Assembly (NCBI GenBank): GCA_964650905.1
Contig: CAZYVH010000003.1
Location: 18,230-80,073 of the forward strand
Direction: 5' to 3'
DNA length: 61,844 nt
Source: an uncultured Wenzhouxiangellaceae bacterium
GTDB taxonomy: Bacteria; Pseudomonadota; Gammaproteobacteria; Xanthomonadales; SZUA-36
The notes under the pieces were generated by a model. That model saw only the letters and a list, made by a program, of their open reading frames with translations. It did not search any database and was not told where the DNA came from. Made by a program: the position numbers and the translations under genes. Of the stretch, positions 21,667 through 59,493 are shown piece by piece. How positions within the stretch are numbered: position 1 is the first letter of the stretch; every line of letters starts with the position of its first letter.

Positions 21667-21834
21667 AAATGATTATCCTGACGTTATAATAATCTGCCCA
21701 ATAAAAAACGCACATGACGACATTCGAAATACCAATGTGGTTTTATCCACGTCAATTTTACCGGAAAATTCACTGGCTTGTTCAGGCAAGACAAAGTAAC
21801 TTGTCTGTCTGACTGCATATGCGCCAGTGAAATC

Positions 21835-31925: not shown

Positions 31926-32001
<76 letters not shown>

Positions 32002-32045
32002 GTTTTAAATGCCCGTCACGAGGTGTGCACGGGTACGCTTCACGG

Positions 32046-32119
32046 GGCCAGGTGGCAGAGTGGTTATGCTGCGGCCTGCAAAGCCGTCTACGCCGGTTCG
32101 ATTCCGACCCTGGCCTCCA
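32046..32119 (+). tRNA. tRNA-Cys (anticodon GCA)
   Basis: 74 nt. The acceptor stem is GGCCAGG/CCTGGCC, the anticodon stem-loop is GCGGC-CTGCAAA-GCCGT, the T-loop is TTCGATT, and CCA is encoded. Confidence 0.9.
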
Positions 32120-32322: not shown

Positions 32323-34308
32323 ATGCCTTTCGCTAAGCGTAAAAGAGCACCTGCCGCAGCCTTGCAAATCTGTCTGGTAATGCTGTCGGTAGTGTCAGCG
32401 GCGATCGTCGCTGGCTGTGCAGGCACCGCGCAGGGTATCGACAGTTCGGTTTATTCCCGTCTCAAAGCCGGGAAAGCGACCAGCCAGACCACGCCCGAGG
32501 CTGCCGCCCTGGTGATCATTCGCTACCCGGCCATGATCCATGATTATGCTGAAAACCTGTATGTCAGTTCTTTTGCGATCAAGGCCATTGGCGGTGAGGT
32601 CACCACCTCGACGGCAAAATCGCAGGCCGCCAGAATTGCACAATCGGTGGTTGAGAAGTCCAGTTATTACGCGATGTCGCTGTACCGTGAATTAAAAGCT
32701 GAGCTGCCCGAAGCTTCTGTGCTGTTATCACCGCATATCATCGCGTGGGATAAGAAACGCCAGTTGTACACACGCCCGATACTTGCAACAGAACAGGTAC
32801 CCAGCGTCCTGACCATCGACTTTAACGTTTATTCCTATCCCGACATCAACAAGATCATGGATTCGCCACCCGTCACGTTTGGCGACCTGGTGACACCGCT
32901 CATCGTTGTGAAAGGCAACCGCTGGATACAGCCAGCCTTAAATGGCCTGTTGATAGCCAGTCCGCCGCTGGCCAGTTCTGCCTGGCGTCAGGCAACCAGG
33001 GACGGTGAACGGCATTTCAATTCACGTCTTGAGGGCAGGGGAGACGATGAGGTTGCTTCACTGGACTTTATCGCTTTTTTGCGTGAGCGTAACAAAAACA
33101 CCCTGCAGATACCCTTCAAAACGGCAATGGCGGGGAGTAGCGGTTCGTTCGCCATCGAACAATACCCCTTGGAAAAAATACAGATGGACGGTGCGGCCAT
33201 TGCAGCCCTGGAAGATGATGGTTCAGTTGATCCATTCGTCAGCGGTTTTGTTAAAGGCGCGAGCAGACGTATCATCGATATGCTCAGTTCGATCGATCAA
33301 GAGCGGGCGACATTTTTTGCCCGTCAGAGGGCCCTGGGCCGTTTTGATCCCGAGCTTGCAAATGTATTTTTTGTGCAGTCCGGGGACGAGAGTGTACGGG
33401 CACGTCTGCAACTTGCCGAGGCCCTCGTGGGTGCCGAGAGGACGTTTCTTGCGGCGCAATCCGACAGTATTTACGAGGGAACCTATGCGGGCAGTTACGG
33501 TTTAAAAATGCGCAAAATTATCGCAGCGGAATACCGCATGCTTGAGCAACGCCGGCACCTGGCACGCAAACAAAATATAACCACGGCGGTCGCGGCCATC
33601 GCCCTGGCCGGTTCGGTATATGGTACTGCCGTGGCATCGACTTCGGCGGGCGCGGCGAGTGTAGCGGCGGTGTCAGGCGCAGCGCTGGGTGGTTCCGTGT
33701 GGGCCATGCACCAGTCGTTTGAGACCAGGACCGAGTCTGAAGAGGTCGGCAAGTATTTCATGGCCCGCATGGCACCCGCTTTTGACCGACAGATGTCTGT
33801 GCAGATGGAATGGCTAGAGTCAAAAGAAGTGATCACGGCAAAGGGCTTCGCCGAATTCAGAAACAAGACCCTGAGTCTGTACCAGTCACGGGTCAGGACC
33901 ATGCGTATCAGTGGTAGCGAACACTGCCGCTTCAAACACCCGGGGTTAAGGCAAACAGGGCGCTGGTATGGGGTGTGTCAACACGGCCTGGCAAGTGGCC
34001 GGGGATACGGATTGATCAGGAACGGGCAGGGCGACAGCGTGGAATACCTTGGTGAGGCCAGAAAAGGGCTGGCATCCGGTACCGGTGGTATGATCATCAG
34101 GAAAGAGGGTCAGTTGGCTGCAAACTATTATGAGGGCTCATTCAAAAATGGCAGGCTCGACGGAACGGTGCGTATCGAAAAACCCGGTTCGCAACCTCAG
34201 TTGCGGCGTTTTAAAGCGGGTGTTGATGCAGGCAGGGGTAATGCAGATCTTTTACAGAGACTGAGCTTTGTCTCAAGCCAGGCAAGTGACCGGTCACTGA
34301 AGCCGTGA
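32323..34308 (+). CDS. Hypothetical lipoprotein with a Gly/Ala-rich hydrophobic segment and C-terminal MORN-like repeats
   Basis: Signal peptide with lipobox IVAGC. A Gly/Ala/Ser-rich hydrophobic stretch is present (ITTAVAAIALAGSVYGTAVASTSAGAASVAAVSGAALGGSVWAM). The C-terminal repeats (YLGEARKGLASGTGGMI, YYEGSFKNGRLDGTVRI) fit the MORN pattern. Confidence 0.5.
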   Translation: MPFAKRKRAPAAALQICLVMLSVVSAAIVAGCAGTAQGIDSSVYSRLKAGKATSQTTPEAAALVIIRYPAMIHDYAENLYVSSFAIKAIGGEVTTSTAKSQAARIAQSVVEKSSYYAMSLYRELKAELPEASVLLSPHIIAWDKKRQLYTRPILATEQVPSVLTIDFNVYSYPDINKIMDSPPVTFGDLVTPLIVVKGNRWIQPALNGLLIASPPLASSAWRQATRDGERHFNSRLEGRGDDEVASLDFIAFLRERNKNTLQIPFKTAMAGSSGSFAIEQYPLEKIQMDGAAIAALEDDGSVDPFVSGFVKGASRRIIDMLSSIDQERATFFARQRALGRFDPELANVFFVQSGDESVRARLQLAEALVGAERTFLAAQSDSIYEGTYAGSYGLKMRKIIAAEYRMLEQRRHLARKQNITTAVAAIALAGSVYGTAVASTSAGAASVAAVSGAALGGSVWAMHQSFETRTESEEVGKYFMARMAPAFDRQMSVQMEWLESKEVITAKGFAEFRNKTLSLYQSRVRTMRISGSEHCRFKHPGLRQTGRWYGVCQHGLASGRGYGLIRNGQGDSVEYLGEARKGLASGTGGMIIRKEGQLAANYYEGSFKNGRLDGTVRIEKPGSQPQLRRFKAGVDAGRGNADLLQRLSFVSSQASDRSLKP

Positions 34309-34315: not shown

Positions 34316-34566
34316 GCTAACCCGGACATTTCATCAAGGATCCGGGAATTGCGCTGTAGCTGGCAAAACAGTCTGGCCGATCGTTCGAATAAGCATAGCG
34401 GTAGCTATGGTGTGAGAAGGATCGACCGAAATGTGAAGCCAGATGCTGTGCAAAACCGGATAGGACAAACTGTCTTTTTTGAAAAATACTACAAACATGC
34501 ATAATCATTTGTTTTCATGAAAATTTATCATTTTATCGTCCGCCTTGGTGAAATGTCCGGGCTAAC
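34316..34566. repeat. MITE-like element, copy C, with 24-nt imperfect terminal inverted repeats
   Basis: The left end is gctaacccggacatttcatcaagg (34316-34339). The right end is ccttggtgaaatgtccgggctaac (34543-34566). They match as inverted repeats at 21/24 positions by hand. The interior is AT-rich, and the right-end sequence also ends copy A (10321-10340). Confidence 0.5.
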
Positions 34567-35326
34567 TACCATGGTCTTTGTTGCCGGCGTGTTGCTGACG
34601 CCGCTGTTGTGCGCCGGTAGCATCAATTTCGTAACAATCGAGACGCTTCCACCCGGTGAACAATACCGGCAACTCAGTCTGGTGCTGATGGTTGCCGCCG
34701 GGGCAGACCCGGCATTGGTTGACAGCCTGCTGCATGAATCCTCACAAAAAGAAGCGGATCAAGACTCAAGCTTTGACCCCGATGTCTATAAAACACCGCT
34801 CACCCGCATTGTCGACCAGCAAACAATGTTGAGCGGTGCAGCAAGGTTGTTGCGCTTTGCCAATCGCTCCCAGAAAGAGATTCGCGCCAAGCTGAGCGCC
34901 ATCGAAGTTGCAAACCCGGTCCTTATCAGTATGCTGGACGGCCAGGCGGTCAGCGAAGATGCAATCATCATCCGCAATGCAATCGCTGACAGCATCAGTT
35001 ACGCCGGTCTGGAAGCTAAAACACTTGCCCATTTACTGGAGGCTTACAGGACACGCACACTGCGTCTTCGAAACGAAATGGAGTTTGCCAGTTTTAGTGC
35101 GGAACTTGACCGCATCACCGCCGAATCCATCCGCGCCGTCGGTGGTCAGTCGGATGCTTACCAGCGTATGTTTGATGACGAGGTGGTTGCCAAGGGTTTT
35201 AAACGGCAAATCGAGACGGCGGATTATATTTACAAGCGCGATAAGGCGTTTGATAAACACGCCGCCGAGATGACCGAGGAAATCATCAAGAATGTGGTTG
35301 AGTCGCAAAGCGAAGTTAATCACTAA
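34517..35326 (+). CDS. Hypothetical protein (start uncertain: 34517, 34553 or 34571)
   Basis: The ORF is 269 aa and predicted mostly helical. Its 5-prime end lies inside repeat copy C. A hydrophobic N-terminal segment is present (MVFVAGVLLTPLLCAGS). No family was recognised. Confidence 0.4.
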   Translation: MKIYHFIVRLGEMSGLTTMVFVAGVLLTPLLCAGSINFVTIETLPPGEQYRQLSLVLMVAAGADPALVDSLLHESSQKEADQDSSFDPDVYKTPLTRIVDQQTMLSGAARLLRFANRSQKEIRAKLSAIEVANPVLISMLDGQAVSEDAIIIRNAIADSISYAGLEAKTLAHLLEAYRTRTLRLRNEMEFASFSAELDRITAESIRAVGGQSDAYQRMFDDEVVAKGFKRQIETADYIYKRDKAFDKHAAEMTEEIIKNVVESQSEVNH

Positions 35327-35562
35327 GTAGGACAAACATTGATGTCCGCCGGTCGGTGGAATCATCATGCACTGACACAACGGCTTGTGAGGGGGTGCCG
35401 GTGGCGGTGTCCGGGACCGTAATCCGTAGGGAACGGATTCCGAACGCCCATGGATGGCTAGTGTACTGCATCGTACACTAAAGTGTGTCCCGGAGACCGC
35501 TTCCGGTACCCCCGCCGAGCACACTCGCAGGCGTAATCAACGTTGCTGGAATTCACAGTTAG
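35327..35562. repeat. Structured intergenic repeat, copy B (MITE/ERIC-like)
   Basis: It fills the gap between two convergent stops (35324-35326 and 35559-35561). It contains several 7-bp hairpins (aatccgt/acggatt, agtgtac/gtacact). It also contains the 64-nt core shared with copy A (35482-35545) and a terminal 25-mer that is an exact inverted copy of 10149-10173. Confidence 0.5.
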
Positions 35563-36821
35563 CCGTCACCGTCTCCATCGGGCGGCTTGTCGGGTGACCC
35601 AGTGTCGGGTGTATTGCTGGCGGAACTGGCGGGTACACTGACACCCCGGGCATTGACCAGGTCCTTGATCGAAAGCGTATCCTTTGACCTGACCCTAAAC
35701 TCGCTGGAATCCTTTACTGTCTGCTGTTCAGATGACTCATGCTCCCGGGCAGTGGAAGACGAAGCTTGCTGCTCGGATGATTCGCTTTCCTGGGCTGTGG
35801 AAGATGAAACCTGCTGCTCAGATGATTCGCTTTCCTGGGCTGCGGCGGGCGAGGCCTGCTGCTCAGATGATTCGTTTTCCCGGGCTTCGTGTGATGAAGT
35901 CTGCTGGCTGGCTGATTGAGCTTGCTGTGTTGCAGACGATACTGCCTGCTGGTTGGCTGATTGGGCTTGCTGTGCTGCTGAAGATGTTGCCTGTTGGCTG
36001 GTCGATTGGGCAGCTTGTACCTTTGAGGAGGTGGCTTGCGGGTTGTTTGACGGCCTGTTTTGCGTCTCGCCCGGTGCCGCACCAGACGCACCCGCCATTC
36101 GGTTTTTCTGCAGGAACTGAAGCGCGCTCTGGGATGTACCGGCGGTGCTGGGCTCATCGGATTCATGGGCCGATGGCGAATAGCTGTCGTCTGCGTCCTG
36201 CTGCATGTCATTTTGCCCATCCTGTTGTGAGGATTGTTGCGCGACTGTTTGTGACTGCTTGGCGCCTTTTTGTCCAATTTGACCAGACACGGCGTCACCC
36301 GTTGGTGATGCCTGTCCTTTTTCACCAGCTTTTGCAGCCCGATCATTTGCGGCGTTGGCACGGGCGTAGTTTTCCGCTTCCCTTTGGTTGTATTTTTCCA
36401 GCAGTTCATCCCAGGCCGCCGCTTCCTGATTCTGTAAAGGACGATTATTGAGCGCTGCTTCGCTGGGTACGTACGGGTGTTTGATCCTGGCGTCCGAGGG
36501 GACCCACTGGTCACTCTCAAGGATTATCTCCCGCAACTGATTGCGCAGGTGTTTTTGTGACGCCTGGGGCAAGGCTTCAATTTTTTGCGGACCCGTTGGG
36601 GCCTCATAGGCAGCCAAGGGTAGTGTACTTCTTTTGATCCGGTCGTCTTTCAGTTCCATAAAGCGCCGGTAATTATCCTCGCTGATTTCCACTTCCTGGC
36701 CTGTTTTCTGCGTGTCCTCATACGCCGGGTCTTCAGCGTCCTGGGCAAAAACCGGGGTAAAAAGTTCAGACGCAGCAAAAACAAGCAATGTCGTGAATAC
36801 GATTCTTCTCGTCATGCTCAT
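35559..36821 (-). CDS. Secreted or anchored Ser/Glu/Gln-rich low-complexity repeat protein
   Basis: The probable start is ATG 36821 (MSMTRRIVFTTLLVFAASELFTPVFAQD), 4 nt after the kinase stop. The C-terminal half is built from 15-aa repeats (AQESESSEQQxSSST and QQAxSSAxQQAQSAx). It is the last gene of the minus-strand operon. Confidence 0.6.
   Translation of the reverse strand: MSMTRRIVFTTLLVFAASELFTPVFAQDAEDPAYEDTQKTGQEVEISEDNYRRFMELKDDRIKRSTLPLAAYEAPTGPQKIEALPQASQKHLRNQLREIILESDQWVPSDARIKHPYVPSEAALNNRPLQNQEAAAWDELLEKYNQREAENYARANAANDRAAKAGEKGQASPTGDAVSGQIGQKGAKQSQTVAQQSSQQDGQNDMQQDADDSYSPSAHESDEPSTAGTSQSALQFLQKNRMAGASGAAPGETQNRPSNNPQATSSKVQAAQSTSQQATSSAAQQAQSANQQAVSSATQQAQSASQQTSSHEARENESSEQQASPAAAQESESSEQQVSSSTAQESESSEQQASSSTAREHESSEQQTVKDSSEFRVRSKDTLSIKDLVNARGVSVPASSASNTPDTGSPDKPPDGDGDG
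35706..36020 (-). repeat. In-frame 45-nt tandem repeats inside the Ser/Glu/Gln-rich gene
   Basis: Units at 35751-35795, 35796-35840 and 35841-35885 are near-identical. More diverged 45-nt units extend on both sides. They generate long shadow ORFs in other frames. Confidence 0.7.
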
Positions 36822-36825
36822 TAGC

Positions 36826-39249
36826 TTACTCCCTGATCGACCTGACGACACGAAAACCGGTAAAATCATTACGGTCGCCATTTTTCAGGTTAAAACGGGC
36901 CGGTAACCGTATGTCACGTGTTCCGGTCAACCATGAACCGCCACGCGTCATGTGCGAACTGCACAACCCCTGGCCCCAGGCCTTGCCATCTGAAGGCGCG
37001 TCGAGATAGGAGAGGTTCATACAATCAGCCGTCCATTCGGCGACATTACCGATGACATCGTAAAGACCAAAAGCATTGGCCATAAAGGTGCCGACCAGCG
37101 CCGTTCCAACTGCCAAGGTGTCAGCACAGGCGGCGTGTTGCCAGCGGAAGCTGGTCTCACTCCCGGCAATGTTGGCGAAGCGGCACAGACCGGCCGGGGT
37201 TCCGCCCAGCCATTCCCCGGTCTCCCCGGCTCGCGCGAAATATTCCCACTCACTTTCACTCGGAAGACGGTAACTTTGACCGGTTTTATCACTCAGCCAG
37301 CGCACGTACTCACCGGCGTCATTCCAGGAAACCATGATCACCGGGTGTTGGCCTCGACCCCAGCCATTGTCGTCGGGCCGGGTTGTGCAGCCCCCGGCGT
37401 CAACACAGGCGTCCCATTCTTGTAGTGTGACCTCGAAGATAGCGACTGCGAACGGTGCATTGATACTGATCATACGACGGGGTTTTTCCAGACCGAGCGC
37501 CAGCGGGGAGGATTCTGCAGAACCCTGCCAGTAACTGCCACTGGGAACCACGATCATTTGTGGGCACGTGTTGCAGTCACTGAAAGATTTACCCGGTCTT
37601 AATGTCAGCTGGTCGAGATGTTGCAGGGCGGAGCTGACACTAGACCCCCTCGGAAAGGCATCAACATACGCCTGATAAGCAGCCTTTGTGTCCAGCTTTA
37701 GTGCGCTGGCAAAAGCATTTGCGTCATCACGCTGGTCCTTGAGAAGGCGGTGGATGCGTCCGGCTTCCTCGATGTGCTGACCGGCCGGCCAGGCATGGAT
37801 GTAATTATCCAGCGATGCCAGCGTACGCTTGTCAATCGCCGCCTGCCAGGCATCCTGCTCCTGGCGGATTTTTGCCAAACGCTCTCGTTCCTGTTTCGCC
37901 TCTCTCTTTTTGAGTGCATCGATGTGCTGCATGGCCTCGCTCTGGTGCAGTCCATTGGGGAATTGATCGAGGTAATCTTCAAAAGCGGCTACCGTGCCTT
38001 CGGTATTTAATTCCTGCCAGGTCTTATCATCAAGCACCTCCAGTTGAACCCGGGCCTGTGCGACATAGACCGACGCCGGAAAATCCTGCATGAAACGCCG
38101 GTACGACAAGGTTGTGTCGGCCTCCAGCGCGGCATGCCAGCGGCTGGTCTCCTCCACAGCAGGTCTGGCGGTGGCTGACGGAATACTTTCCGTATTCTCG
38201 GGCGTCGGCGACAGCGCAGCACCCGGGGGGCTCTTTTCTGTCAGCAAAAATAGAGCAATAGTGACCATGACCAGAAGCAACACCCCGAGTAACACACGCG
38301 GCAACCATTCCTTGCCTTCGCGCGGATCGCTGGCAATGGATTTGCCACCCGGCACCGAGCGCCGCCAGTCGAGGCTCTTGAATGTTTTCTGCCATTGCCT
38401 GACGTCCATCGGCCTGTCCTGCGGCAGCAGATACAGGCCCTGCCCGATGACAGTGGCAATGCTTGCAAATCGAGTGTCTGTCAACAATTCGCCAGGCGCT
38501 ATCAACGGGTCCGCCTCGCCGGCGTCGAGTGCTTTTTGCCGGGCGCTTGCCGGTGGTGGAATTTTCCCGCTCACGCAGCGGTAGAGGGTGGCTGCCAGAC
38601 CATAAATATCCGTCCACGGACCAATACGCCCATCGACCGCGGATTGCTCCAGTGCTGCGTAACCCTCGCTGCCCCGCGGAAAGCGCTCAGATCGATCGAG
38701 CGGTGAGGCGGCGATACCGAAATCCAGCAGAATGGGGCCGTGCTCGTCGCCCATGTAGATGTTGGCGGGCTTGATGTCCTGGTGGATGATCCCGTGCTCG
38801 TGGATGTAGGTGAGTCCGTCCATCATTGCCAGCATCAGGCTGCTTGTTTGCTTAGGGTCCAGGATGTCCGTGGTTTGCAGGATTTCGCTCAGGGGCTTGC
38901 CGGGGTAATAGGGCATCAGGAAGTAAGCGGTGCCATTGGCTTCAAAATAGCGAAGTATCCTGACGATATTGGGATGCTCCAGTTCAGCCAGCAGGCGGCC
39001 TTCGGTCAGAAAACGTTCAAGACCCTCTTTAAATGACTTCCCGGATGCCGGGTTCCGGGCAGACAGCGTTCCGTCACCGCGCCGGGAAACGTGCTTAGCC
39101 GGCAGGTATTCCTTGAGTGCAAACTGTGTTCCGATCGCAGTATCTGATACCTGGTAGGTGACACCGTTTGCGCCGCTGCCGAGCACGGCATTGACCTGCA
39201 GGTCGCGTATGAATGCCCCGGGCGGCAAGGAGGAAGGTATTGTACTCAC
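36826..39249 (-). CDS. Ser/Thr protein kinase, TM, four helical repeats, FGE-sulfatase-like domain
   Basis: The GTG start forms a GTGA overlap with the upstream stop. Hanks kinase motifs are GSGANG, FALKEY, HQDIKPAN, DFG and a YAALE segment at the position where an APE-type motif is expected. The TM helix is VLLGVLLLVMVTIALFLL. Four xYxxYxxxFPxGxxxxxAxxxL repeats follow. The C-terminal FGE-sulfatase pattern includes WEYFARAG, YDVIGNVAEWT, RGGSW and FRVVRS. Confidence 0.85.
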   Translation of the reverse strand: MSTIPSSLPPGAFIRDLQVNAVLGSGANGVTYQVSDTAIGTQFALKEYLPAKHVSRRGDGTLSARNPASGKSFKEGLERFLTEGRLLAELEHPNIVRILRYFEANGTAYFLMPYYPGKPLSEILQTTDILDPKQTSSLMLAMMDGLTYIHEHGIIHQDIKPANIYMGDEHGPILLDFGIAASPLDRSERFPRGSEGYAALEQSAVDGRIGPWTDIYGLAATLYRCVSGKIPPPASARQKALDAGEADPLIAPGELLTDTRFASIATVIGQGLYLLPQDRPMDVRQWQKTFKSLDWRRSVPGGKSIASDPREGKEWLPRVLLGVLLLVMVTIALFLLTEKSPPGAALSPTPENTESIPSATARPAVEETSRWHAALEADTTLSYRRFMQDFPASVYVAQARVQLEVLDDKTWQELNTEGTVAAFEDYLDQFPNGLHQSEAMQHIDALKKREAKQERERLAKIRQEQDAWQAAIDKRTLASLDNYIHAWPAGQHIEEAGRIHRLLKDQRDDANAFASALKLDTKAAYQAYVDAFPRGSSVSSALQHLDQLTLRPGKSFSDCNTCPQMIVVPSGSYWQGSAESSPLALGLEKPRRMISINAPFAVAIFEVTLQEWDACVDAGGCTTRPDDNGWGRGQHPVIMVSWNDAGEYVRWLSDKTGQSYRLPSESEWEYFARAGETGEWLGGTPAGLCRFANIAGSETSFRWQHAACADTLAVGTALVGTFMANAFGLYDVIGNVAEWTADCMNLSYLDAPSDGKAWGQGLCSSHMTRGGSWLTGTRDIRLPARFNLKNGDRNDFTGFRVVRSIRE

Positions 39250-40724
39250 TCCTCTACCCCTGGTTTCATATGTATCCTCAGCCGAATGAGCACATCCCCC
39301 AGCAGGATTTCATCGTCCGGCGAGACAAACAGGATTTCGCCGGGCAGACAGGGGATCGTGCTGATAAATGTGCCGTTACTGGATCCCAGATCGGTAAGTG
39401 TCAGTGTCCCCGGCCGACCTTGCAAACGCGCGTGCGCACGGCTGATTGCAGCCGACTGCAGCCTGAGACCGGCTTCACCCCTGCCAATAACAACATCGAT
39501 GGGTCCGGCTTCAATACCGCAGTAACGTTGCACCGCTTCTCCGTTGGCCAATATCCCTTCGAGCAGGAGCATACCGGAGTACACGGCTGGCAGATCCTCG
39601 ATGGCGGGTATTTCGGGTTCATCAAATGACGCAGTGGACACACGAGGGTGGGAGATTGCCGGGCTGGTGGCAAGCTCCGTGGTAGCGGGTTCCTCGGTGT
39701 GCGTATGGCCGTCTTGTATCAATGTGGGCGTGCTCACCATCTTAGGTCTGAGCCACCAGATGACGAAGGCCAGTATCGGTATTAAGCCCAACAGCAGCCA
39801 GACGGGGTCCTCATTGTTGCTTCCCGGGGCGGCTTGCCGAGCGGCGCTGCCCACCGGTTTGTGGCTGTCTTGAGTTGGCACCTCCTCAGTTGATCCACCT
39901 TGACTTGACCCTGCGATGGGCCGCTCCGGCAGCGCCTCAACACCAGAATCTGCAGGCCCGCTTTGATCAACCATTACCTTTGCATGTTCAGCTTGCTGGC
40001 TGATTTTTGGGGCGGTAACGGTTTCCTTGAGGTTGCTTTGTTCGGGGCTGCCGCAGATGCTATGCTCATAATCGATGTTCATATCGTCAAGCACACGGGC
40101 GATTTTTTTTGCATCGAGTAGGCCGATTGCAAGCTCGCCTTGCTGGTCATCCATCGTCGTCCCGGGTCTGAACCCCGCCAGGTAACCGCAACGGTCAAAC
40201 AGTGCCCCATTGACGGCGGGTAATGGCGTTTCTTTGGATAGAGGTGTCGATCCGGACCCGTCGCCGCTGGTGAACCGGGCTGGTAACCACAGGGGCGCTG
40301 TGCCCTTTGCAATCTTTTCAGCTGCTGGAAAGGCCGCGAAACGCAGCGTGTCTTCCAGCACGGCACCATTGTCTGCAAGTACGACAGCGGGTCGTTGTAA
40401 ACCTTTGACCATCAGGACCGCCAGACCATCGGTGCTAGAACGACGGATGGTTTTTGCCGGGCGGCCGTTGCGGATGATGTCAGTGCCACCATCGAGGACC
40501 ACGATCTCATCACCCTGCGCGACAAAATCAGCGGGCACCATGACCATGCCATCAGCGGAGATCACCACCCCGGTGGCAGGTTTGACAAAATCGTGCGCTA
40601 CCAGTTTGAGTACCAGTACCACCGATGCGGGCATCTGTGCCATGCACGGCGGGGCCAAAAGCAGGCAGATACAGCACAAAAACACGCCGCAATGGTCCGG
40701 TCTGCGCCAGGGTACAGCGTGCAT
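39246..40724 (-). CDS. Exported trypsin-like (degenerate) domain, TM, cytoplasmic FHA domain protein
   Basis: The signal-like N-terminus is VFLCCICLLLAPPCMAQ. A Trypsin_2-like pattern is present (ATGVVISADGMVMVPADFV, DGLAVLMVKG, AVNGALFDRCGYLAGF). The TM helix is VWLLLGLIPILAFVIWWL. The C-terminal FHA motifs are IGRG..., ISRAHARL and SSNGTFI. Its start overlaps the upstream stop (TGATG). Confidence 0.7.
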   Translation of the reverse strand: MHAVPWRRPDHCGVFLCCICLLLAPPCMAQMPASVVLVLKLVAHDFVKPATGVVISADGMVMVPADFVAQGDEIVVLDGGTDIIRNGRPAKTIRRSSTDGLAVLMVKGLQRPAVVLADNGAVLEDTLRFAAFPAAEKIAKGTAPLWLPARFTSGDGSGSTPLSKETPLPAVNGALFDRCGYLAGFRPGTTMDDQQGELAIGLLDAKKIARVLDDMNIDYEHSICGSPEQSNLKETVTAPKISQQAEHAKVMVDQSGPADSGVEALPERPIAGSSQGGSTEEVPTQDSHKPVGSAARQAAPGSNNEDPVWLLLGLIPILAFVIWWLRPKMVSTPTLIQDGHTHTEEPATTELATSPAISHPRVSTASFDEPEIPAIEDLPAVYSGMLLLEGILANGEAVQRYCGIEAGPIDVVIGRGEAGLRLQSAAISRAHARLQGRPGTLTLTDLGSSNGTFISTIPCLPGEILFVSPDDEILLGDVLIRLRIHMKPGVEE

Positions 40725-41467
40725 CAGGCGGGATAAAGCCTGTTGATCAGGTTGTCGAGACAGTACTGGCCAGAGCGATTGAGGGTCTTTTCTTCCCGGC
40801 CCTGAATCAGGTTCTGTAAAAATACCAGGATGGCCGCCATCACCAACGCCAGCAGTGTCGTACTGAATGCAACACCGAGCCGCTCGGTAACCTGGTAGAG
40901 CATATCCGGGTTGTCCACGTTGGCGCGGTCGCCGGCGTAGTTGAGCGCCATCATGATACCGATGACGGTGCCGATGAAACCGAGTGTTGGCAGCAGCCAG
41001 ATAATGTAACGCACGATGTTGTAGCGCAGGTCCAGTTCGTGCAAAAACAGCTCGAGACTTGAATTGAGCAGCGCGTTGGTCTGGTCAACCGAGCGGCTCA
41101 GGTTGAAGTTGAGTACACACCGCTCGATCAGACGTGGCAGAAAACACGTGGTGCGATACATGCTGCTGCGTACTTTCTGGTATATCGGTGTGATGTCGTC
41201 ACCGGGTCTTAAAACGGTTTCATCGTCGAGTGGCAGGTAACCCCGTTCAAACTGGCTTTCCTCGAGACGCCCGCTACGCCAACGGATCGATAATTCACCC
41301 AGGCCGGCAAAAAAGGTCAGCCACAGGACATTTTGCAGCGTGAAGGGCCAGGAACCTCGATTAATATCCAGCATGATAGTCGCCGCCTGGGGTGGCAGGA
41401 CCCTGGCCAGCAGGGCGATGACCAGCACCCCCGCGAGTAAACTTATCAGCAATGTCAGATAGCGCAT
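40724..41467 (-). CDS. MotA/TolQ/ExbB proton-channel family protein
   Basis: The C-terminal signature is LPTLGFIGTVIGIMMAL...LGVAFSTTLLALVMAAILVF, preceded by an N-terminal TM helix. ATG at 41467 is preferred over the TTG at 41506 in the ORF track. Confidence 0.75.
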   Translation of the reverse strand: MRYLTLLISLLAGVLVIALLARVLPPQAATIMLDINRGSWPFTLQNVLWLTFFAGLGELSIRWRSGRLEESQFERGYLPLDDETVLRPGDDITPIYQKVRSSMYRTTCFLPRLIERCVLNFNLSRSVDQTNALLNSSLELFLHELDLRYNIVRYIIWLLPTLGFIGTVIGIMMALNYAGDRANVDNPDMLYQVTERLGVAFSTTLLALVMAAILVFLQNLIQGREEKTLNRSGQYCLDNLINRLYPA

Positions 41468-41486
41468 GGTGTCATTAATCCGTTTG

Positions 41487-41933
41487 TCAGGGTTGATCTT
41501 CTTCAATTTTCCCGGTCAGGGGGTTTCGTTTTGGGTTGCTCAGACCCGGCCCGGGTTCGGTAAAGCCCGTCATTGAGCGTACGGGGGTATTTCCGCTACG
41601 TAATGAAAAATGTTTTTCACCCAGCCTGAGGTCAGTGTGTTTAGCAAACACCGAAGTCAGGCGTTCCAGTGGTATCTCGACCTCACCCATGCGAATCAGA
41701 TCGCCGGTACACAAGCTGACCCTGCGGACACGGATCCATGCTCCGTTACGCTGCAAAAAAATACCGTTCCTGGAATCAGCGTCCACTACCCAGACACGTC
41801 CGTCCGTGGAGCGTTCAATAGACGCGTGGACACGCGACACGGTCGGGTGATCCAGCACCAGGTCACAGGCGGCGTTCCGGCCACAGCTTTTACTGATCAA
41901 TTCAAATAACTCCTTGTGGTTATCATACCGCAC
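41487..41933 (-). CDS. Stand-alone FHA-domain protein
   Basis: 148 aa with a GTG start. FHA motifs are CGRNAACDLVL, VSRVHASI and SRNGIFL. Confidence 0.8.
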   Translation of the reverse strand: MRYDNHKELFELISKSCGRNAACDLVLDHPTVSRVHASIERSTDGRVWVVDADSRNGIFLQRNGAWIRVRRVSLCTGDLIRMGEVEIPLERLTSVFAKHTDLRLGEKHFSLRSGNTPVRSMTGFTEPGPGLSNPKRNPLTGKIEEDQP

Positions 41934-41969
41934 GATGCCGGCATAAACGCCAATTGATGGCCGCCTGTC

Positions 41970-42908
41970 TCATTGTGCAAGCGCCAGGAAACCACCGGAA
42001 TTACCCCGCGCGAGGTTTTGCATAAACTCGACCGTGCCCTTGTATTTGAAATAATCACCGATGGTCACCGTGTGGATTTCCTTGTGTGAGGTATTGGACA
42101 TCGTGATGTTCTGGGCCAGCGAGCGCGGCGGCAGATTGCCGTTATAGACCGGATTGGGGAGACCATCGCTGAGCAGGATGATAGCTTCCGACGGACCCTT
42201 GAAAGCCACCTGGAAAGCGTCCTTGAGCGACGAGGCACCGGCAAACTGACCCTTCAGCTGGCTGATAAAGTGCATTGCCCCGGTGCGATTCTGGTGGCTC
42301 ATGACCACCAGCGAACCATCGGCTGGCCAACGGTGATAGCTCGGGCCCGAATCCAGTTGCTGAAAACCGAGGATACCAAATTCATAACCAGGCCTGAGTG
42401 AATCCATGGCCCGCGCGACGGTCCGCCAGACCAGTTCATCGTATTGAGCTAAATACTTGTTCATGTCGATCATGAACAGGATGCGGGTTTTGTCGGTTTT
42501 CAGACCGAGAAACCTGAAGGTCACCAGCTTGCTGCCGGTTTTCTTCCGCGTTTCCACTGGTGAAGACGGTGGGGGTGGTGGCTGGTCCTTGTGTGCCTGC
42601 AAACGGGCATGGATGGCCCGGATTTCACTGGAAACAATATCCTGCTCGGCGATGAGCTCCCGCTGCCGGGTGCTCGCCGCCGCAATGGCCTGGCGGGCCT
42701 TACTGATACCGGCCACCGTATCATCCAGCTCGGCCTCGGTTTGATTGGTCTCTGATTCGATATAATCCAAGTGCTTGACCAGTTGGGCCTCCTTTTGGTA
42801 ATCCGGCATCATGATGATCGTGATGATGATGAAAGCACCCATGGCAGAGGCAAACAGATCAATGGCTGAGAGCGAGAACACACCGAAACTGCGCAGCCGT
42901 GTCCTCAT
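41970..42908 (-). CDS. MotB/ExbD-like TM helix, coiled coil, vWA domain protein (degenerate MIDAS)
   Basis: The N-terminal helix SAIDLFASAMGAFIIITIIMMP carries a membrane-edge Asp (codon 42858-42860). A heptad-rich linker and a Pro-rich hinge follow. The vWA strands are ILFMIDMNKYL (DxNxY, 42453-42467), FGILGF, AIILLSDG and IHTVTIG. An ATGA overlap links it to the upstream paralogue. Confidence 0.75.
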   Translation of the reverse strand: MRTRLRSFGVFSLSAIDLFASAMGAFIIITIIMMPDYQKEAQLVKHLDYIESETNQTEAELDDTVAGISKARQAIAAASTRQRELIAEQDIVSSEIRAIHARLQAHKDQPPPPPSSPVETRKKTGSKLVTFRFLGLKTDKTRILFMIDMNKYLAQYDELVWRTVARAMDSLRPGYEFGILGFQQLDSGPSYHRWPADGSLVVMSHQNRTGAMHFISQLKGQFAGASSLKDAFQVAFKGPSEAIILLSDGLPNPVYNGNLPPRSLAQNITMSNTSHKEIHTVTIGDYFKYKGTVEFMQNLARGNSGGFLALAQ

Positions 42909-43891
42909 CCAGAGACACCTACAAAATCACCATTGTTGAGCCGGGCCAGGGTCTGCAGGAAGAGCACCAGATTACGGTTATGGGTGTAGTCGCCGATGGC
43001 GACGGTGTGCAATTCGGTTTGCCTGAACTGGTTCAGACGGGTGATCTCCTGCAGGATATACCCCGGCTGTGTATTGGGCTCACCGTCACTCATCAGGATC
43101 ACGGCGCTGGCGGGGTATTCCAGTGCGGCCTGCAGTGCATAATGGGTCGGGGTTGAACCGACAAAGCGATGCACCAGCGAGCGTGCGAAAACCGATGCCT
43201 GGTAAAGGTTTTCCTTGTTGGCAGTAGCCAGCGTCTTGTTACCGGGAAAAGTCCAGAGGACGGGCTGCGGGTTACCCTGGTAACCGATGATCGCAAACCG
43301 GTTGCTTTCGTCCAGTGGTTTCAGCAATTCCAGGACCGTCTGTATCATCAGGTTCTCGTAACGGGTCATACTGCCCGACATGTCAATAACGATGACAAAA
43401 CTCTTTGCATGGGTCGCCAGACCGAGTATCGAAAATTCCACGCCGTGGGTAATGGCCTTGGGCTGTGGCTCCGGTTTGACGACCTTAAGCGGCTCGGCCA
43501 CTGGTGTGGGCAGGTCCGCCAGTTGCCGTCTGCTGTCAGCCAACTGCTTTTTCAAGCGGGCGATACGTGTCTCGACACCCTGGTTGGATACATTGGCGTC
43601 CAGCAGTTCGCGTTGCAACTGCTCCTTCTCCGCCAGCCGCTCCTCAAGCTGGCCGGATGCAAGGCTGCGTTTTTGCATGACGTCCCGTGTCTTTGCAAAA
43701 GCCTCGTCGGGGTCGGCGTGTTGATAGTAGGGAAACAGCAGCATAACGAGCAGGATAAATGCACCCAGGGCAGAGGCGAACAGGTCCACGGCGGACGTCG
43801 AGAATACAGCAGTGTCTCTGTCAGGTATTTTCACAGGTTTCCGGGAATCAGCCGTTTGGAAGTTGACACCAGGGACGGCGATTATGTTCAA
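42905..43891 (-). CDS. MotB/ExbD-like TM helix, coiled coil, vWA domain protein (intact MIDAS)
   Basis: TTG start with AAGGA 5 nt upstream. The helix is SAVDLFASALGAFILLVMLLFP, with the Asp codon at 43784-43786. The vWA domain has FVIVIDMSGSM (DxSxS, 43370-43384), GSTPTHYAL, VILMSDGEPN and LHTVAIG. Confidence 0.8.
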   Translation of the reverse strand: MNIIAVPGVNFQTADSRKPVKIPDRDTAVFSTSAVDLFASALGAFILLVMLLFPYYQHADPDEAFAKTRDVMQKRSLASGQLEERLAEKEQLQRELLDANVSNQGVETRIARLKKQLADSRRQLADLPTPVAEPLKVVKPEPQPKAITHGVEFSILGLATHAKSFVIVIDMSGSMTRYENLMIQTVLELLKPLDESNRFAIIGYQGNPQPVLWTFPGNKTLATANKENLYQASVFARSLVHRFVGSTPTHYALQAALEYPASAVILMSDGEPNTQPGYILQEITRLNQFRQTELHTVAIGDYTHNRNLVLFLQTLARLNNGDFVGVSG

Positions 43892-43924
43892 TGCGGTCCT
43901 TAGCCAATTTTAAACGAAACCGCA

Positions 43925-46900
43925 ATGAGGTTCAGGATAATCAAACAGGTCTTAATCAATCTACTGCTTTTTGCCATTGTCTTGACGGGCGCAATACAGT
44001 CTCAGTGGGCACTGGCACTGGCACAGCCTGCTGAAGCACCACCCAGCCAGGAGTATTTTGTCCGCCAGCAGGGTGGTGAGGCGCTGCTGATCAGGATCAG
44101 TGCCTTTGAGGCAGAAATCGAATCACGTGTCTATGATCCACAAAAGTCGCTGTTATCAGTGTCCGCCTTACCCGGCAACCGGATTGCTCCGCTATTCCAG
44201 TTTATTGATGCAACCCACAGCCAGCGACAACTGGATATTCAGGTTAGCTCAAAACGCAGTACCGGCAATAGTAAATTTGAGATCGAGTTTACCCGGCTCA
44301 GGGACTGGGACGAAAGAAGTGGTCTGCTGGTGCGTGCCTATCACTTACTCGCTTACGCCATGCAGGCCCAACTGGGGCCGGGTTCAACTGACTGGAGTGT
44401 CAATGTCAGCAGTCTGCTGGGCGCGAGCAAAATTTTTGCGCAGTACGGCATGCGCGAACAACGTTTGTGGTCCACTTACCTGGCTGCCTACCTCGTCTAT
44501 TACCGACTCGGTGATTATCCGTTCGCTGCCAGGCTCAACGACACAGTACTCGAGGAAACCAATGCGCCACACTGGCAGGAAATCAGACTTGCCGCGCTGC
44601 AACTTAAAGCAGATATACTCATCAAACTCAGCGACAGCAATGTCATGCAGGATTCCGGAAAGCGTACAGACCCTGTACAGGCAGCGTTATTCGCTGCGGC
44701 GCAGTTCGCCCAATCCACAGGGTTTGGCTTTGAACAGGCCAGCGCAGTCTACACAAGCGGTCTGGTCTACGCCGGCCAGGGGCTTTTCGCGCAGGCCTCG
44801 GCACAGTACCAGAACGCTCTGAAGCTGGCACAACCTCTCGCAGACGACCTTTTTTTAAAAGAGATCAGGGAAAGTGTGGTTGCCGTCAATGCCAGGCAGG
44901 GCAATGCCCCGGCATCCGGTCAGGTGCTGCAACAGATTGAGACGCAACTGCTGCGTGAAGGCGGTGGCGATGAACTGGCACTCAACCTGTTGCAACAAGG
45001 CGATCTGCTGCTTGGCACCCACCGCTGGGCAGAGGCCATCGAGGTACTCACACAGGCACTTGAACAACAGAACGACAGTTCGATCCGCAGTCGTGCAAAT
45101 TTGGCCCTTGCAACAGCCAGTTATGAAGACGGTGACCCTGATGCAGCTTTGGCGTACCTGGATGCTGCCGGTGTCAGCGACGACCTGCGGCCAGCGAGAA
45201 ATGGCAAACGCGATCTGGACGTGGCTGCGGGGCTGGAAATCAAGGCGGCGATCTATCGTGCCCGGGGCGAGTATGAGCACATGCAAAGCGTACGCCAGGT
45301 GCAGCACGACTGGTTGCCAACGGGCGTGGATCAAGCCCGGTATTTTTATCAGCGGGGTCTGGATGCGCTGGCCAGGGGGGGCGGTAAGCGGGTGCAGGCA
45401 GTGGCTTTTTTCCGAAAAAGCTACCAGGCAAAGGGTTATGCACAGCCACCCGGGTTACGACTGCTCGCACAAATGCAGCTGTGTGTGCTGGGGGCGGAAA
45501 AAGCAGGTCTGTGTACACCCGGCAACGCTTTGCGTGCCTACCAGAAGCTGGTTTCCAACCGTATCCCCCGGCAGGTAGTTGAGGCCCGGTTTCTGCGCGC
45601 CCGTTACCAGGCCAGACACGGACAGAGAAAGGCCGCTATGGCGATTATGGAACAGGCGGTCGACGATATTCATTTTTACCGTCAGATGATGCCCGGCATG
45701 CTGGGAGCCTGGTACTGGCAGCACCGGAATGATCTGTTTACCGCTTACCTTGATCTGGCGAGTACCACTACAACTTCAGCAGGTAGTAACGGGGAACGAG
45801 ATTTCGAATCACTACTGGCGCTGAGTCGGATCAGGTTTGCTGCACGTCCGGTCAGTAGCGAGCGCCTGTCGAGCACTGACCTTGCAGCAGGTGATTCGCT
45901 ACGGCAACGGTTTGCAATGCTCGCAAACAGCACTGCGGGTGAAGAGACCGCAGAGCTGATCACCGGCCTTCAACGGGATGTTGACAGTCTGCAGACAGCC
46001 TTTAATCACACATTCGCTTTTCTAAGCCGCTCGGGTTTAAAGAAAGCCCTGGATGGTCTTGCAAGGAGCGAAGCCGTCTTGACCTACCACCTTACACGAG
46101 ATGAAGCACTGGCCTGGCTGGGAAAAAACGGCCAGGTCCGGCGCTTTGTCATCGCACACCCTGATCGGCTTTTTACAAAGCTGCAACGGGCCCATGACGA
46201 TCTCCCGGCCACTTCGGGCCCGGCATTTGACGTGATGATGCAGGAGATCGGTGAACAACTGCTCAAACCACTGGCCGGCAGCTTGCCTGAAACGATATAT
46301 TTTGTTCCCGAAGGTTTGCTGACAGGTTTTCCCGTAGACGCACTGCGCCTGGGGCAGGAATACCTCATCGAACACCACCGGCTGGTCAATGTGCTGGCAT
46401 TCCCATCTGATCCACGGCCAATAGCCAGCCTGCACACAACCGCACCACAACGTGTTTTCATTGCCGGTTCCCCACAGGACTACTCGGCCTGGGTCGAATC
46501 CCGCCTGGCAACATCCCCGGAAATCCAGGCGGTTGCCGAGCAGTTCATCGGACCGGGTTTGCATATCGTGCAGGGGAGAGCTCTGCTACGTGACGAATTT
46601 GATGACACCCGCCTGCAACGCGCTGAACTGGTGCACCTGTCCATGCCCGCTGTGATGGATTTTGATCAGCGGCAACGCTCCGGACTGATGTTGTCCGAGC
46701 CACGACGCGATGCAGGCCGGGAGATGCTGTCATTGACAGATATCAGCGCGAACCGCCTGCAGGCCAGGCTGGTGTTTCTTAGTGCGAGCCGTATCCAGGG
46801 CGAGATCGACGCGACATTTGCAGGCCAGCCAGCCCTGGTGACGGACTACCTGGCGACCGGTGCGCACGCTATTATTGCCGGTTCCTGGCGACCGGCCAGT

Positions 46901-47056
46901 CAGCTGGCGACAGAACTGGTGACGGGTTTCTACCGCTCACTGGCGGTATCAAACGATATCACAGGTGCAATGACCCAAAGCAAGCGGGACTATTTACGCA
47001 AGTACAACAACGACGGCTCTCGCAGCTGGGCTGCGTACCAGCTTTATATCAGGTAG
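43925..47056 (+). CDS. Exported TPR-repeat protein with a C-terminal CHAT (caspase-like) domain
   Basis: 1043 aa. The N-terminal hydrophobic signal or anchor is LINLLLFAIVLTGAIQSQWALALA. The central helical-repeat region is TPR-like. The C-terminal CHAT pattern includes IYFVPEGLLTGFPVDAL, VFIAGSP, ELVHLSMPA, RLVFLSASRIQG and AIIAGSW. Confidence 0.8.
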   Translation: MRFRIIKQVLINLLLFAIVLTGAIQSQWALALAQPAEAPPSQEYFVRQQGGEALLIRISAFEAEIESRVYDPQKSLLSVSALPGNRIAPLFQFIDATHSQRQLDIQVSSKRSTGNSKFEIEFTRLRDWDERSGLLVRAYHLLAYAMQAQLGPGSTDWSVNVSSLLGASKIFAQYGMREQRLWSTYLAAYLVYYRLGDYPFAARLNDTVLEETNAPHWQEIRLAALQLKADILIKLSDSNVMQDSGKRTDPVQAALFAAAQFAQSTGFGFEQASAVYTSGLVYAGQGLFAQASAQYQNALKLAQPLADDLFLKEIRESVVAVNARQGNAPASGQVLQQIETQLLREGGGDELALNLLQQGDLLLGTHRWAEAIEVLTQALEQQNDSSIRSRANLALATASYEDGDPDAALAYLDAAGVSDDLRPARNGKRDLDVAAGLEIKAAIYRARGEYEHMQSVRQVQHDWLPTGVDQARYFYQRGLDALARGGGKRVQAVAFFRKSYQAKGYAQPPGLRLLAQMQLCVLGAEKAGLCTPGNALRAYQKLVSNRIPRQVVEARFLRARYQARHGQRKAAMAIMEQAVDDIHFYRQMMPGMLGAWYWQHRNDLFTAYLDLASTTTTSAGSNGERDFESLLALSRIRFAARPVSSERLSSTDLAAGDSLRQRFAMLANSTAGEETAELITGLQRDVDSLQTAFNHTFAFLSRSGLKKALDGLARSEAVLTYHLTRDEALAWLGKNGQVRRFVIAHPDRLFTKLQRAHDDLPATSGPAFDVMMQEIGEQLLKPLAGSLPETIYFVPEGLLTGFPVDALRLGQEYLIEHHRLVNVLAFPSDPRPIASLHTTAPQRVFIAGSPQDYSAWVESRLATSPEIQAVAEQFIGPGLHIVQGRALLRDEFDDTRLQRAELVHLSMPAVMDFDQRQRSGLMLSEPRRDAGREMLSLTDISANRLQARLVFLSASRIQGEIDATFAGQPALVTDYLATGAHAIIAGSWRPASQLATELVTGFYRSLAVSNDITGAMTQSKRDYLRKYNNDGSRSWAAYQLYIR

Positions 47057-52005: not shown

Positions 52006-52081
<76 letters not shown>

Positions 52082-55850: not shown

Positions 55851-55867
55851 GAAAAGCAGCCTGACCA

Positions 55868-58120: not shown

Positions 58121-58124
58121 TAGT

Positions 58125-59114: not shown

Positions 59115-59493
59115 GGTGATTACCTTACAACTGTCTGCGACTGAGGCGCGTTTCGAAAGAAGTTAATGGTATGGCGTTCTGACCCACCAGGACTGCCATA
59201 AGCAGGGTGATTTCTATTCGCGTATTGCGGCTTTGTGAATTCATGGCACCAGTTATCCGTTAAACCCTTTGAATGTTTTTTTACCTTTTTGATATTACCC
59301 TTGTAAAAATCCGGATAGCAATGCTGTCTAATTATTTTATCATCAGCTAAAATTTATCGGGAAAAATCTTCGTCTGAACCGGGATAGATATAGGATCGGG
59401 TACAAAGTGTAACTCAGGAGCTACTTGTAAAAGTGCCATTTATTTCAACTAACTCACATAAATGTGATGACACGCTATGCTGTCTGGTGTCAT

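Follow-up and report, generated by a model that had tools for sequence, protein, structure and literature searches.

We analyzed a gene cluster at positions 36826-47056 of a 61,844-nucleotide stretch of DNA (hereafter the window) from an uncultured Wenzhouxiangellaceae bacterium. Seven genes lie inside this interval, and an eighth (35559-36881, minus strand) overlaps its low end. Together they encode a MotA/TolQ/ExbB-like channel protein, two membrane-tethered vWA proteins, a kinase fused to a formylglycine-generating enzyme (FGE)-fold domain, two FHA proteins, one of which also carries an HtrA-like (S1C) domain, a TPR protein that ends in a CHAT-fold domain, and a repetitive secreted protein. 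The reading that best accounts for these features, to which we assign a probability of roughly 0.55, is that of a putative envelope motor driven by protons, in a version specific to this lineage and regulated by phosphorylation, with the pseudoenzyme domains serving as binders or scaffolds.

Written with the CHAT gene on the minus strand and the remaining genes on the plus strand, the gene order CHAT / vWA328, vWA312, FHA, MotA, S1C-FHA, kinase-FGE, secreted protein is identical in 4 of 4 cluster-spanning GTDB metagenome-assembled genome (MAG) loci. Two further MAG loci are partial and colinear with the cluster, and each of the six MAG loci holds a single copy in a conserved syntenic position. 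The identical order recurs in every long metagenome locus, most of which appear to come from marine or estuarine sediment. Residue conservation is given throughout as counts of orthologue columns on alignments from 86 related loci, supplemented for the CHAT protein by database orthologues, with the number of sequences differing by protein (20–85).

A channel protein and a vWA pair form the putative motor core

The channel protein (260 aa; 40724-41506, minus strand; Pfam MotA_ExbB, 1.4e-13) is the product of the cluster's most conserved gene, sharing 77–88% identity among 85 orthologues and conserving the transmembrane (TM) motifs GTVIG and STT. Close to it lie two vWA genes, vWA312 (41970-42908, minus strand; recognized by paralogue alignment) and vWA328 (42905-43891, minus strand; Pfam VWA_3, 9.5e-11), whose products each consist of a TM helix, a coiled coil and a vWA domain; the true start of vWA328 is probably Val20. 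Both proteins carry the invariant N-terminal motif FS[TL]SA[IV]DLFASA[LM]GAF, in which an Asp (Asp36 in vWA328 and Asp17 in vWA312) lies in the single TM helix, at its cytoplasmic end. The metal-ion-dependent adhesion site (MIDAS) of vWA328 is intact (D170-x-S172-x-S174, T249, and D269), and this site and the TM Asp are invariant in 42 orthologues. The MIDAS of vWA312 is degenerate, reading D148-M-N150-K-Y152, and among 52 orthologues Asp148 and Asn150 are invariant and the Tyr position is nearly so. Judged by its residues, it is a fourth degenerate site of the cluster, one absent from the sequence-only reading of this DNA that preceded our analysis. An exhaustive HMMER search with vWA328 recovered 781 relatives among cluster representatives, many of about 300 aa with the same N-terminal motif; intact (D-x-S-G-S) and degenerate (D-M-N-K-Y-like) forms of the MIDAS both occur among them, and the pairing of one intact with one degenerate site recurs in distant members of the vWA family.

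A Pfam scan found no ExbD, TolR, or MotB gene in the cluster, and the isolated vWA TM segments gave no ExbD or TolR match in Pfam. We read these helices as probably ExbD-like because of the invariant Asp, the gene context, and published analysis. The TPH-vWA/TolQ-like family has been described as comprising TM-tethered vWA proteins that occur as heterologous pairs in tight linkage to tolQ homologues, with no tolR or exbD (PMC12204202, msaf138). The authors of that study propose that vWA pairs rotate within a TolQ-like pentamer as a putative 5:2 motor and suggest a gliding-type function for motor-linked vWA proteins; their text makes no mention of kinase, FHA, FGE/sulfatase, or CHAT partners (PMC12204202). 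In the window, a TolQ/ExbB-like gene lies near a heterologous vWA pair with the TM Asp, and there is no tolR or exbD gene in the cluster. By every feature that can be tested here in the genes and their translations, the cluster belongs to this family, with the 5:2 stoichiometry and proton-driven rotation or force being putative for the cluster by analogy.

Kinase and FHA motifs are intact

The 807-aa kinase-FGE protein (36826-39249, minus strand; Pfam Pkinase 6.3e-31 and FGE-sulfatase 2.5e-47) is composed of a Hanks-type Ser/Thr kinase, one TM helix placed at residues 319-337 by hydropathy, a helical BamD/TPR-like linker, and a PvdO-like FGE-fold domain. The kinase domain (residues 15-290; 38380-39207, minus strand) retains K46 in FALKEY, D158 and N163 in HQDIKPAN, and D176-F-G. 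Among 36 orthologues, K46, D158, N163, and D176 do not vary and all but one retain the Gly of DFG (35 of 36), bearing out the claim of the sequence-only reading that the kinase is intact. Since the residues that define Hanks-type kinases (VAIK Lys, HRD-loop Asp and Asn, and DFG) are all present, kinase activity is predicted.

The two FHA domains belong to a soluble protein of 148 aa (41487-41933, minus strand; Pfam FHA 3.9e-16) and to a bitopic S1C-FHA protein of 492 aa (39246-40724, minus strand; Pfam FHA 7.2e-10 and Trypsin_2 0.028). By hydropathy, the bitopic protein comprises a signal or anchor segment, a periplasmic HtrA-like (S1C) domain, a TM helix (residues 307-325), and a cytoplasmic FHA domain (residues 405-485; 39270-39512, minus strand); its start is uncertain and lies near residue 22. 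The phosphothreonine-binding residues are intact in both: G18-R19, S33-R34-x-H36, and S54-x-N56-G57 in the soluble protein (nearly invariant in 75 sequences), and G414-R415, S428-R429-x-H431, and S448-x-N450-G451 in the membrane protein (nearly invariant in 46 sequences). The motifs that had been noted by eye (GR, SRxH, and S-x-NG) are thus conserved across orthologues, and with the Gly-Arg, Ser-x-x-His, and Asn-Gly elements of phosphothreonine recognition present, both domains are predicted to bind phosphothreonine.

Three enzyme-like modules lack the canonical catalytic residues

Three further domains resemble enzymes, and their periplasmic placement is suggested by the pattern of signal peptides and TM hydropathy. 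The FGE-fold domain of the kinase protein (residues 549-804; 36838-37605, minus strand) is a full-length member of the FGE-sulfatase fold (Pfam PF03781, 2.5e-47). Its closest solved relative is PvdO (5hha), which matches over the whole domain with an E-value of 1.7e-40, and true FGEs come next at about 3e-15. In a phmmer alignment with the Streptomyces coelicolor FGE (2q17), RGGSWLTG pairs with RGGSYLCH, which puts Thr775 (36925-36927) at the first catalytic Cys, and gapless extension of the same alignment puts Ile780 (36910-36912) at the second. The two copper-binding Cys of FGE (C336 and C341 of the human enzyme) are hence absent, as the sequence-only reading had stated; the alignments covered 2q17, 2aft, and 5hha. 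Thr775 is found in 28 of 28 orthologues and Ile780 in 25 of 28, within a Cys-replacing segment, GGSW[ILFV]TG[ST][KR][ED]IR, that is nearly invariant in these 28 sequences. Nowhere in the kinase protein is conservation higher than in this domain, whose mean pairwise identity is 73% versus 59% for the kinase.

The Cys pair provides the catalytic copper ligands of FGE, and PvdO-like and Tsi3-like FGE-fold proteins lack it (bioRxiv 10.1101/2021.05.21.445229). PvdO is genetically required for the final oxidation that the pyoverdine chromophore undergoes, although the purified protein is inactive and cofactor-free (PMC6206403). The Cys-less state also occurs in distant kinase-FGE and FGE-only homologues of related clusters, including an alphaproteobacterial MAG. 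Because PvdO and these homologues of other lineages share the Cys-less motif, the state is ancestral to the PvdO-like clade and was not lost in this cluster, contrary to the earlier proposal of three independent losses in one cluster. The domain does not reach the PvdO equivalog cut-off (NCBIfam NF051459, 177 bits against 500), and no pvd genes are found among the annotated genes of the window. The absence of the Cys pair is correct, and catalytic inactivity is not proven for this fold.

The S1C-like domain of the bitopic FHA protein (residues 32-225; 40050-40631, minus strand) is weakly recognized by Pfam (Trypsin_2, E 0.028). A profile built from 16 sequences of the domain matches DegQ (6z05), DegP, and DegS, with a best E-value of 2.7e-4. 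For most of residues 32-190 the pLDDT of its AlphaFold model exceeds 90, and Foldseek searches with this model return HtrA1, DegS, DegQ, Rv3671c, and the S1C domain of RsgI9 at a probability of 1.0 and TM-scores up to 0.70. The double beta-barrel of S1 proteases is present and the His-Asp-Ser triad is absent: in the profile alignment LVLVPADFV lies over YIVTNNHVV, GGLAVL over TDLAVI, and PLPAVNGALFD, without gaps, over NPGNSGGALVD, so that Asp66, Gly100, and Val171 occupy the His, Asp, and Ser positions and Asn172 falls on the oxyanion-hole Gly. Across 68 orthologues the His position is D, E, G, A, S, Y, or N, the Asp position is mostly Gly, and the Ser position is V or I; a distant S1C homologue in the related locus L167 likewise lacks the triad. 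The proposal that Asp replaces the catalytic His holds, whereas the Asn that had been placed at the Ser position is one residue off, Val171 being the equivalent residue; either assignment leaves no nucleophile. Of the 68 orthologues, 65 have Ser or Thr at position 172. We considered this residue as a shifted nucleophile and rejected it because GALFD aligns with the GALVD of DegQ without gaps, the strand in the model begins at Gly173, and both His and Asp are absent.

The third module lies at the end of a divergently transcribed, secreted TPR-CHAT protein of 1043 aa (43925-47056, plus strand; Pfam CHAT 5.2e-25), which consists of a signal peptide, a beta-sandwich (residues 41-125), a TPR-like solenoid (130-710), and a CHAT-fold domain (716-1043; 46070-47053, plus strand). 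The AlphaFold model of the whole protein has a pLDDT of 87.7, and its top Foldseek matches are Csx29, separase, and DdvA. A profile of the CHAT domain alone was needed for residue assignment, as a single-sequence phmmer search against the PDB found nothing and a full-length profile was swamped by TPR matches. When the domain profile is aligned by hhalign to a canonical TPR-CHAT protein, P0168 (probability 97.9), LVHLSMPAVMD pairs with IVHFATHGSID and LVFLSAS with LVVLSAC, so that the catalytic His is replaced by Pro908 (46646-46648) and the catalytic Cys by Ser955 (46787-46789). The solved anti-sigma factor DdvA (8rot), whose catalytic dyad is H862 and C907 (PMC11506125), likewise has its C907 in the column of Ser955. 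Pro908 is present in 21 of 22 locus orthologues, and no His occupies this column in any orthologue examined. None of 69 orthologues (47 from databases and 22 from loci) has a Cys at position 955, where T, S, L, M, I, or A is found. The CHAT fold thus follows a TPR solenoid as in CHAT proteases and the His-Cys dyad is missing, the replacement of the canonical motifs by HLSMPA and LSAS having been read correctly from the translation. The ALLPDEF and HLSMP motifs of the domain are conserved.

For all three domains, profile alignments against characterized families place non-catalytic residues at every canonical site, a comparison on which the sequence-only reading had staked its claim. Its description of the modules as catalytically dead is right insofar as the canonical residues are absent in all three, and overstated for the FGE fold, given that PvdO lacks the Cys pair and is needed for oxidation.

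The substitutions are maintained under purifying selection

The substitutions recur in orthologous clusters with identical gene order, as the sequence-only reading had suggested checking. Nei-Gojobori (NG86) estimates on the closest pairs, for which dS is near saturation and values are rough, give dN/dS of 0.02 for the channel protein, 0.05–0.06 for the vWA proteins, 0.06 for the FGE-fold domain, 0.09 for the kinase, 0.12–0.13 for the FHA domains, 0.17 for the CHAT domain, and 0.19 for the S1C-like domain. The enzyme-like domains are maintained modules under purifying selection. Replacements fixed across orthologues, combined with this selection, point to functional, non-canonical modules. In one long-read MAG (L006, 3514-13869), the CHAT, S1C-FHA, and kinase-FGE orthologues are each broken into several open reading frames (ORFs), which suggests either assembly frameshifts or real pseudogenization in that genome.

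Distant relatives separate a core from an added signaling layer

Related neighborhoods outside the window's lineage show which parts travel together. In three loci, including one in a Rhodospirillaceae MAG, the order of products is an FHA protein, a MotA_ExbB protein, a second FHA protein, a PP2C phosphatase, two uncharacterized proteins, a kinase-FGE-sulfatase protein, a further uncharacterized protein, and a vWA pair. An Algimonas MAG (L163) has a homologue of the window's 661-aa protein, a vWA pair, and a channel gene, followed by an FGE-fold protein that is homologous to residues 312-805 of the window's kinase protein and lacks the kinase; FHA genes are absent from this neighborhood. On the strength of the Algimonas locus and the distant neighborhoods, the FGE-fold membrane protein is a core partner of the putative motor, and the kinase, FHA, and PP2C proteins are an add-on. 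The Cys pair is absent in every motor-associated FGE-fold protein examined. The kinase of L166 (7882-9978) carries, where the FGE fold would be, a periplasmic domain of the NosD/beta-helix type, and its periplasmic module is therefore exchangeable.

A PP2C phosphatase adjoins the FHA and MotA genes in L161, L164, L165, and L166. A scan of most window ORFs of at least 150 aa, up to about 57 kb, revealed no PP2C. Within the neighborhoods and searches examined, the CHAT protein was seen only in the window's lineage and the S1C-like domain only there and in L167. The latter locus (1-4466 and 4615-20828) holds a related cluster with an extra 1008-aa kinase beside VipB and PAAR-toxin genes of type VI secretion. 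A genome scan also returned 74 FHA-only loci (L007-L080), in which no related cluster was found and which were set aside.

Neighboring genes and surroundings

The secreted protein encoded at the low end of the cluster (440 aa; 35559-36881, minus strand), identified by translation and hydropathy, is the last gene of the operon by synteny in all long loci. Its N-terminal part is conserved and its tail, rich in Ser, Gln, and Glu, consists of repeated acidic E-S-S-E-Q-Q-type units. The 5' end of the gene overlaps the kinase gene by 56 nt unless translation begins at Met21, which is the probable start. Convergent to the cluster are genes for a lipoprotein-like protein of 661 aa with MORN-like C-terminal repeats (32323-34308, plus strand) and a protein of 269 aa (34517-35326, plus strand), neither of which matches a Pfam family. 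Both are syntenic in L001-L004 and in many longer metagenome loci, and the 34%-identical homologue of the 661-aa protein in the Algimonas MAG lies directly upstream of the vWA pair. These two genes probably belong to the system, making the cluster ten genes instead of eight.

The cluster is flanked by housekeeping genes, the flanks are syntenic across species, and its GC content matches that of its surroundings. Rfam identified three tRNAs only in the window: tRNA-Gly(GCC) and tRNA-Cys(GCA) at 31926-32119 (plus strand), just upstream of the 661-aa gene, and tRNA-Ala(CGC) at 52006-52081 (minus strand), about 5 kb beyond the cluster. No mobility or integrase genes lie between these flanking tRNAs. 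The tRNAs at 31.9 kb and 52.0 kb raised the possibility of a genomic island, which we rejected because the flanks are syntenic across species and the GC content is unremarkable. Elsewhere in the window, two tandem paralogous genes at 55065-56620 (plus strand) encode multihaem cytochrome c7-like proteins (Pfam Cytochrome_C7, about 2e-24 each). GC content is lower at 20001-22000 and 58001-60000 (0.46 versus about 0.54), and the first of these patches contains a family-2 glycosyltransferase and ORFs without a Pfam family.

A model for the cluster and its alternatives

In the model that we favor, the TolQ/ExbB-like channel and the two vWA proteins would form a proton-driven unit of the 5:2 type, with the invariant TM Asp residues lying within the channel and the vWA domains in the periplasm, one with a working metal-ion adhesion site (vWA328) and one without (vWA312). 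The motor core, which sequence, synteny, and published work support, would also include the membrane-anchored PvdO-like FGE-fold protein, the secreted low-complexity protein and, probably, a lipoprotein. The FGE-fold domain may act as a periplasmic partner whose state controls the fused cytoplasmic Hanks kinase. Phosphothreonines made by this kinase would be read by the soluble and membrane FHA proteins, which, given the intact motifs and the co-occurrence of the genes, could gate motor assembly or activity, and the signaling layer would in this way couple the periplasmic state to the motor. The FGE-fold, HtrA-like, and TPR-CHAT modules would bind periplasmic ligands or proteins or serve as scaffolds, and the protease-like clefts may hold a partner chain uncut. 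As a candidate output, the vWA metal site could transmit force to a partner in the outer membrane or the cell wall. The most economical interpretation of the enzyme-like modules is the one suggested by the sequence-only reading, that they act as binders, sensors, or scaffolds. There are two precedents: the S1C-like sensor domain of RsgI9, which binds cellulose (PMC12203970), and the Tsi3 immunity proteins, which have the FGE fold without the Cys pair (bioRxiv 10.1101/2021.05.21.445229). That part of the earlier interpretation stands, with the reservation that inactivity of the FGE fold is unproven.

Several observations weigh against this model. In the published work (PMC12204202) as in ours, homology and predicted structures are the basis for the motor role, and the kinase substrates and FHA ligands are postulated. 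Missing canonical residues leave other chemistry possible, as is illustrated by the genetic requirement for PvdO, to which the FGE-fold domain is more closely related than to any other solved protein, and the prevalence of Ser or Thr beside the S1C Ser position points the same way. With dS near saturation, the dN/dS values are only rough, though all are far below 1. The PP2C genes of the relatives, none of which was found in the window, imply that the phospho-relay may work differently, and the related cluster of L167 has no MotA-like gene in the fetched stretch.

A more specific version, which we advance tentatively, envisages a phospho-gated periplasmic force machine of a kind not described before: the proton-driven TolQ-like pentamer would turn or pull the vWA heterodimer as a rotor, the catalytically silent pseudo-CHAT and S1C modules would clamp the load, and the kinase-FGE protein would report to the FHA switch. 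Examples of such a load would be the secreted protein, acidic and rich in Ser, Gln, and Glu, or a partner in the outer membrane that the one intact MIDAS binds; the FGE-fused kinase would report load or ligand state, and the FHA proteins would turn the motor on or off. More doubtful is the proposal that the modules are still enzymes with non-canonical chemistry, for example a PvdO-like periplasmic oxidoreductase or a protease fold using other residues, in a kinase-controlled modification or maturation pathway. The high conservation of the FGE-fold domain and its nearly invariant Cys-replacing segment, the need for Cys-less PvdO in dihydropyoverdine oxidation, the Ser or Thr at S1C position 172, and the conserved ALLPDEF and HLSMP of the CHAT domain would all fit. 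Against these stand the inactive, cofactor-free state of purified PvdO and the sub-threshold NCBIfam score; moreover, the window's own S1C protein has Asn172, its triad His and Asp are both gone with the His position variable, and a variable Cys-equivalent and a Pro at the His-equivalent of the CHAT domain support neither general base nor nucleophile chemistry. The cluster might instead supply the motor and adaptor of a machinery for surface motility, adhesion, or secretion like that of Agl-Glt gliding or type IX secretion, with the FGE fold as a GldK/PorK-like ring or scaffold and the vWA proteins providing CglB-like adhesin coupling. We consider this improbable, since the matches of the FGE fold to PorK/GldK (NCBIfam 5e-19; PDB 9mzu, E 1.1e-13) and of an FHA domain to GltG (1.8e-12) are all domain-level and far under family cut-offs, the closest solved relative of the FGE fold is PvdO and not PorK, and no GldL/M/N, Glt, or outer-membrane beta-barrel genes lie in or beside the cluster, even though a gliding-type function has also been proposed for the published family (PMC12204202).

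Kinase, FHA, vWA, CHAT, and FGE-fold domains all appear in published surveys of biological conflict systems, and the sequence-only reading had set the cluster against typical effector-bearing conflict systems. That a defense system with inactivated effector domains is involved seems to us very unlikely. The distant relative L167 does adjoin VipB and PAAR-toxin genes, but PADLOC returned only generic kinase-domain and weak ZorA (MotA-like) matches in the window and none for the CHAT, vWA, FHA, or S1C proteins; the gene order and housekeeping flanks are conserved across species, GC content is that of the surroundings, mobility genes and an active effector are lacking, and each of the six MAG loci carries one copy in a conserved position. 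Together with the match of the core to the TPH-vWA motor family, these data lead us to abandon the conflict-system frame. Least credible of all is the view that the enzyme-like domains are decaying remnants without function. These domains are the fastest-evolving parts of the cluster, with mean pairwise identities of 0.46–0.50 against 0.86 for the channel protein. Decay is nevertheless already contradicted by the selection data, with dN/dS of 0.06–0.19, many invariant positions, and confident AlphaFold models, as well as by intact reading frames in the window and in 5 of 6 MAG loci (L006 being the split one) and by full-length metagenome copies.

The favored model of a phospho-regulated envelope motor bears on systems that were recognized only in 2025, and the cluster shows the TolQ-like/TPH-vWA systems as more than bare motors. 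In several lineages, the putative motor is accompanied by a membrane protein with the FGE fold, a kinase, and FHA proteins as readers, a fixed set of partners that often includes a PP2C phosphatase, and in one abundant group of sediment Gammaproteobacteria it is joined by two protease-fold pseudoenzymes. The phosphorylated proteins, the ligand of the single working vWA metal site, and the cargo of the silent protease clefts offer handles on the motor's role. The operon is also a clear bacterial case in which several periplasmic pseudoenzymes are conserved and encoded together, and in annotation its genes should not be named sulfatase-maturing enzymes, serine proteases, or caspase-like proteases.

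Comparison with known systems

Each enzyme-like module has characterized relatives from which it departs in defined ways. PvdO of Pseudomonas aeruginosa (5hha) shares with the window's domain the fold, the lack of the Cys pair, and a periplasmic location, whereas the window's domain shares its polypeptide chain with a TM helix, a helical linker, and a kinase, has no pyoverdine context, and falls below the PvdO family score. Human SUMF1 and the FGEs of S. coelicolor and T. curvata have the same fold, with both copper-binding Cys replaced in the window. HtrA, DegS, and DegQ share the double barrel with the S1C-like domain, which differs in lacking the triad and a PDZ domain. RsgI9 resembles the S1C-FHA protein in architecture, its S1C domain likewise being the extracytoplasmic part of a single-pass signaling protein, but the output domain in the window is FHA and not an anti-sigma domain. 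Csx29 (craspase), separase, and DdvA combine a TPR solenoid with a CHAT domain as the window protein does; they keep the His-Cys dyad where the window protein has Pro908 and Ser955. DdvA also shares a periplasmic location and a transmembrane signaling context, although the window protein, which has a signal peptide and a beta-sandwich at its N-terminus, is soluble.

At the level of the whole system, one of the closest parallels is the PpkA-Fha1-PppA pathway of type VI secretion with TagQRST, in which a membrane Hanks kinase with a periplasmic sensor part signals to an FHA protein, and the latter controls how an envelope machine is assembled. PpkA has a vWA domain in the periplasm, and TagR is an FGE-like protein. 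The vWA and FGE domains of our cluster reside on proteins other than those that bear them in type VI secretion; the window contains no type VI secretion genes, and the cluster has no PppA-type phosphatase. The TPH-vWA/TolQ-like family, which occurs in Proteobacteria, is matched in the tolQ/exbB-like gene near a vWA pair, the TM Asp, and the lack of tolR and exbD, with the difference that a small FHA gene separates the channel and vWA genes in the window. To this core the window adds the kinase-FGE protein, two FHA proteins, the S1C pseudo-protease, and the TPR-pseudo-CHAT protein, and one of its two MIDAS motifs is systematically degenerate. Relative to the published family, the fixed signaling layer, the pairing of an intact with a degenerate MIDAS, and the two protease-fold pseudoenzymes are new.

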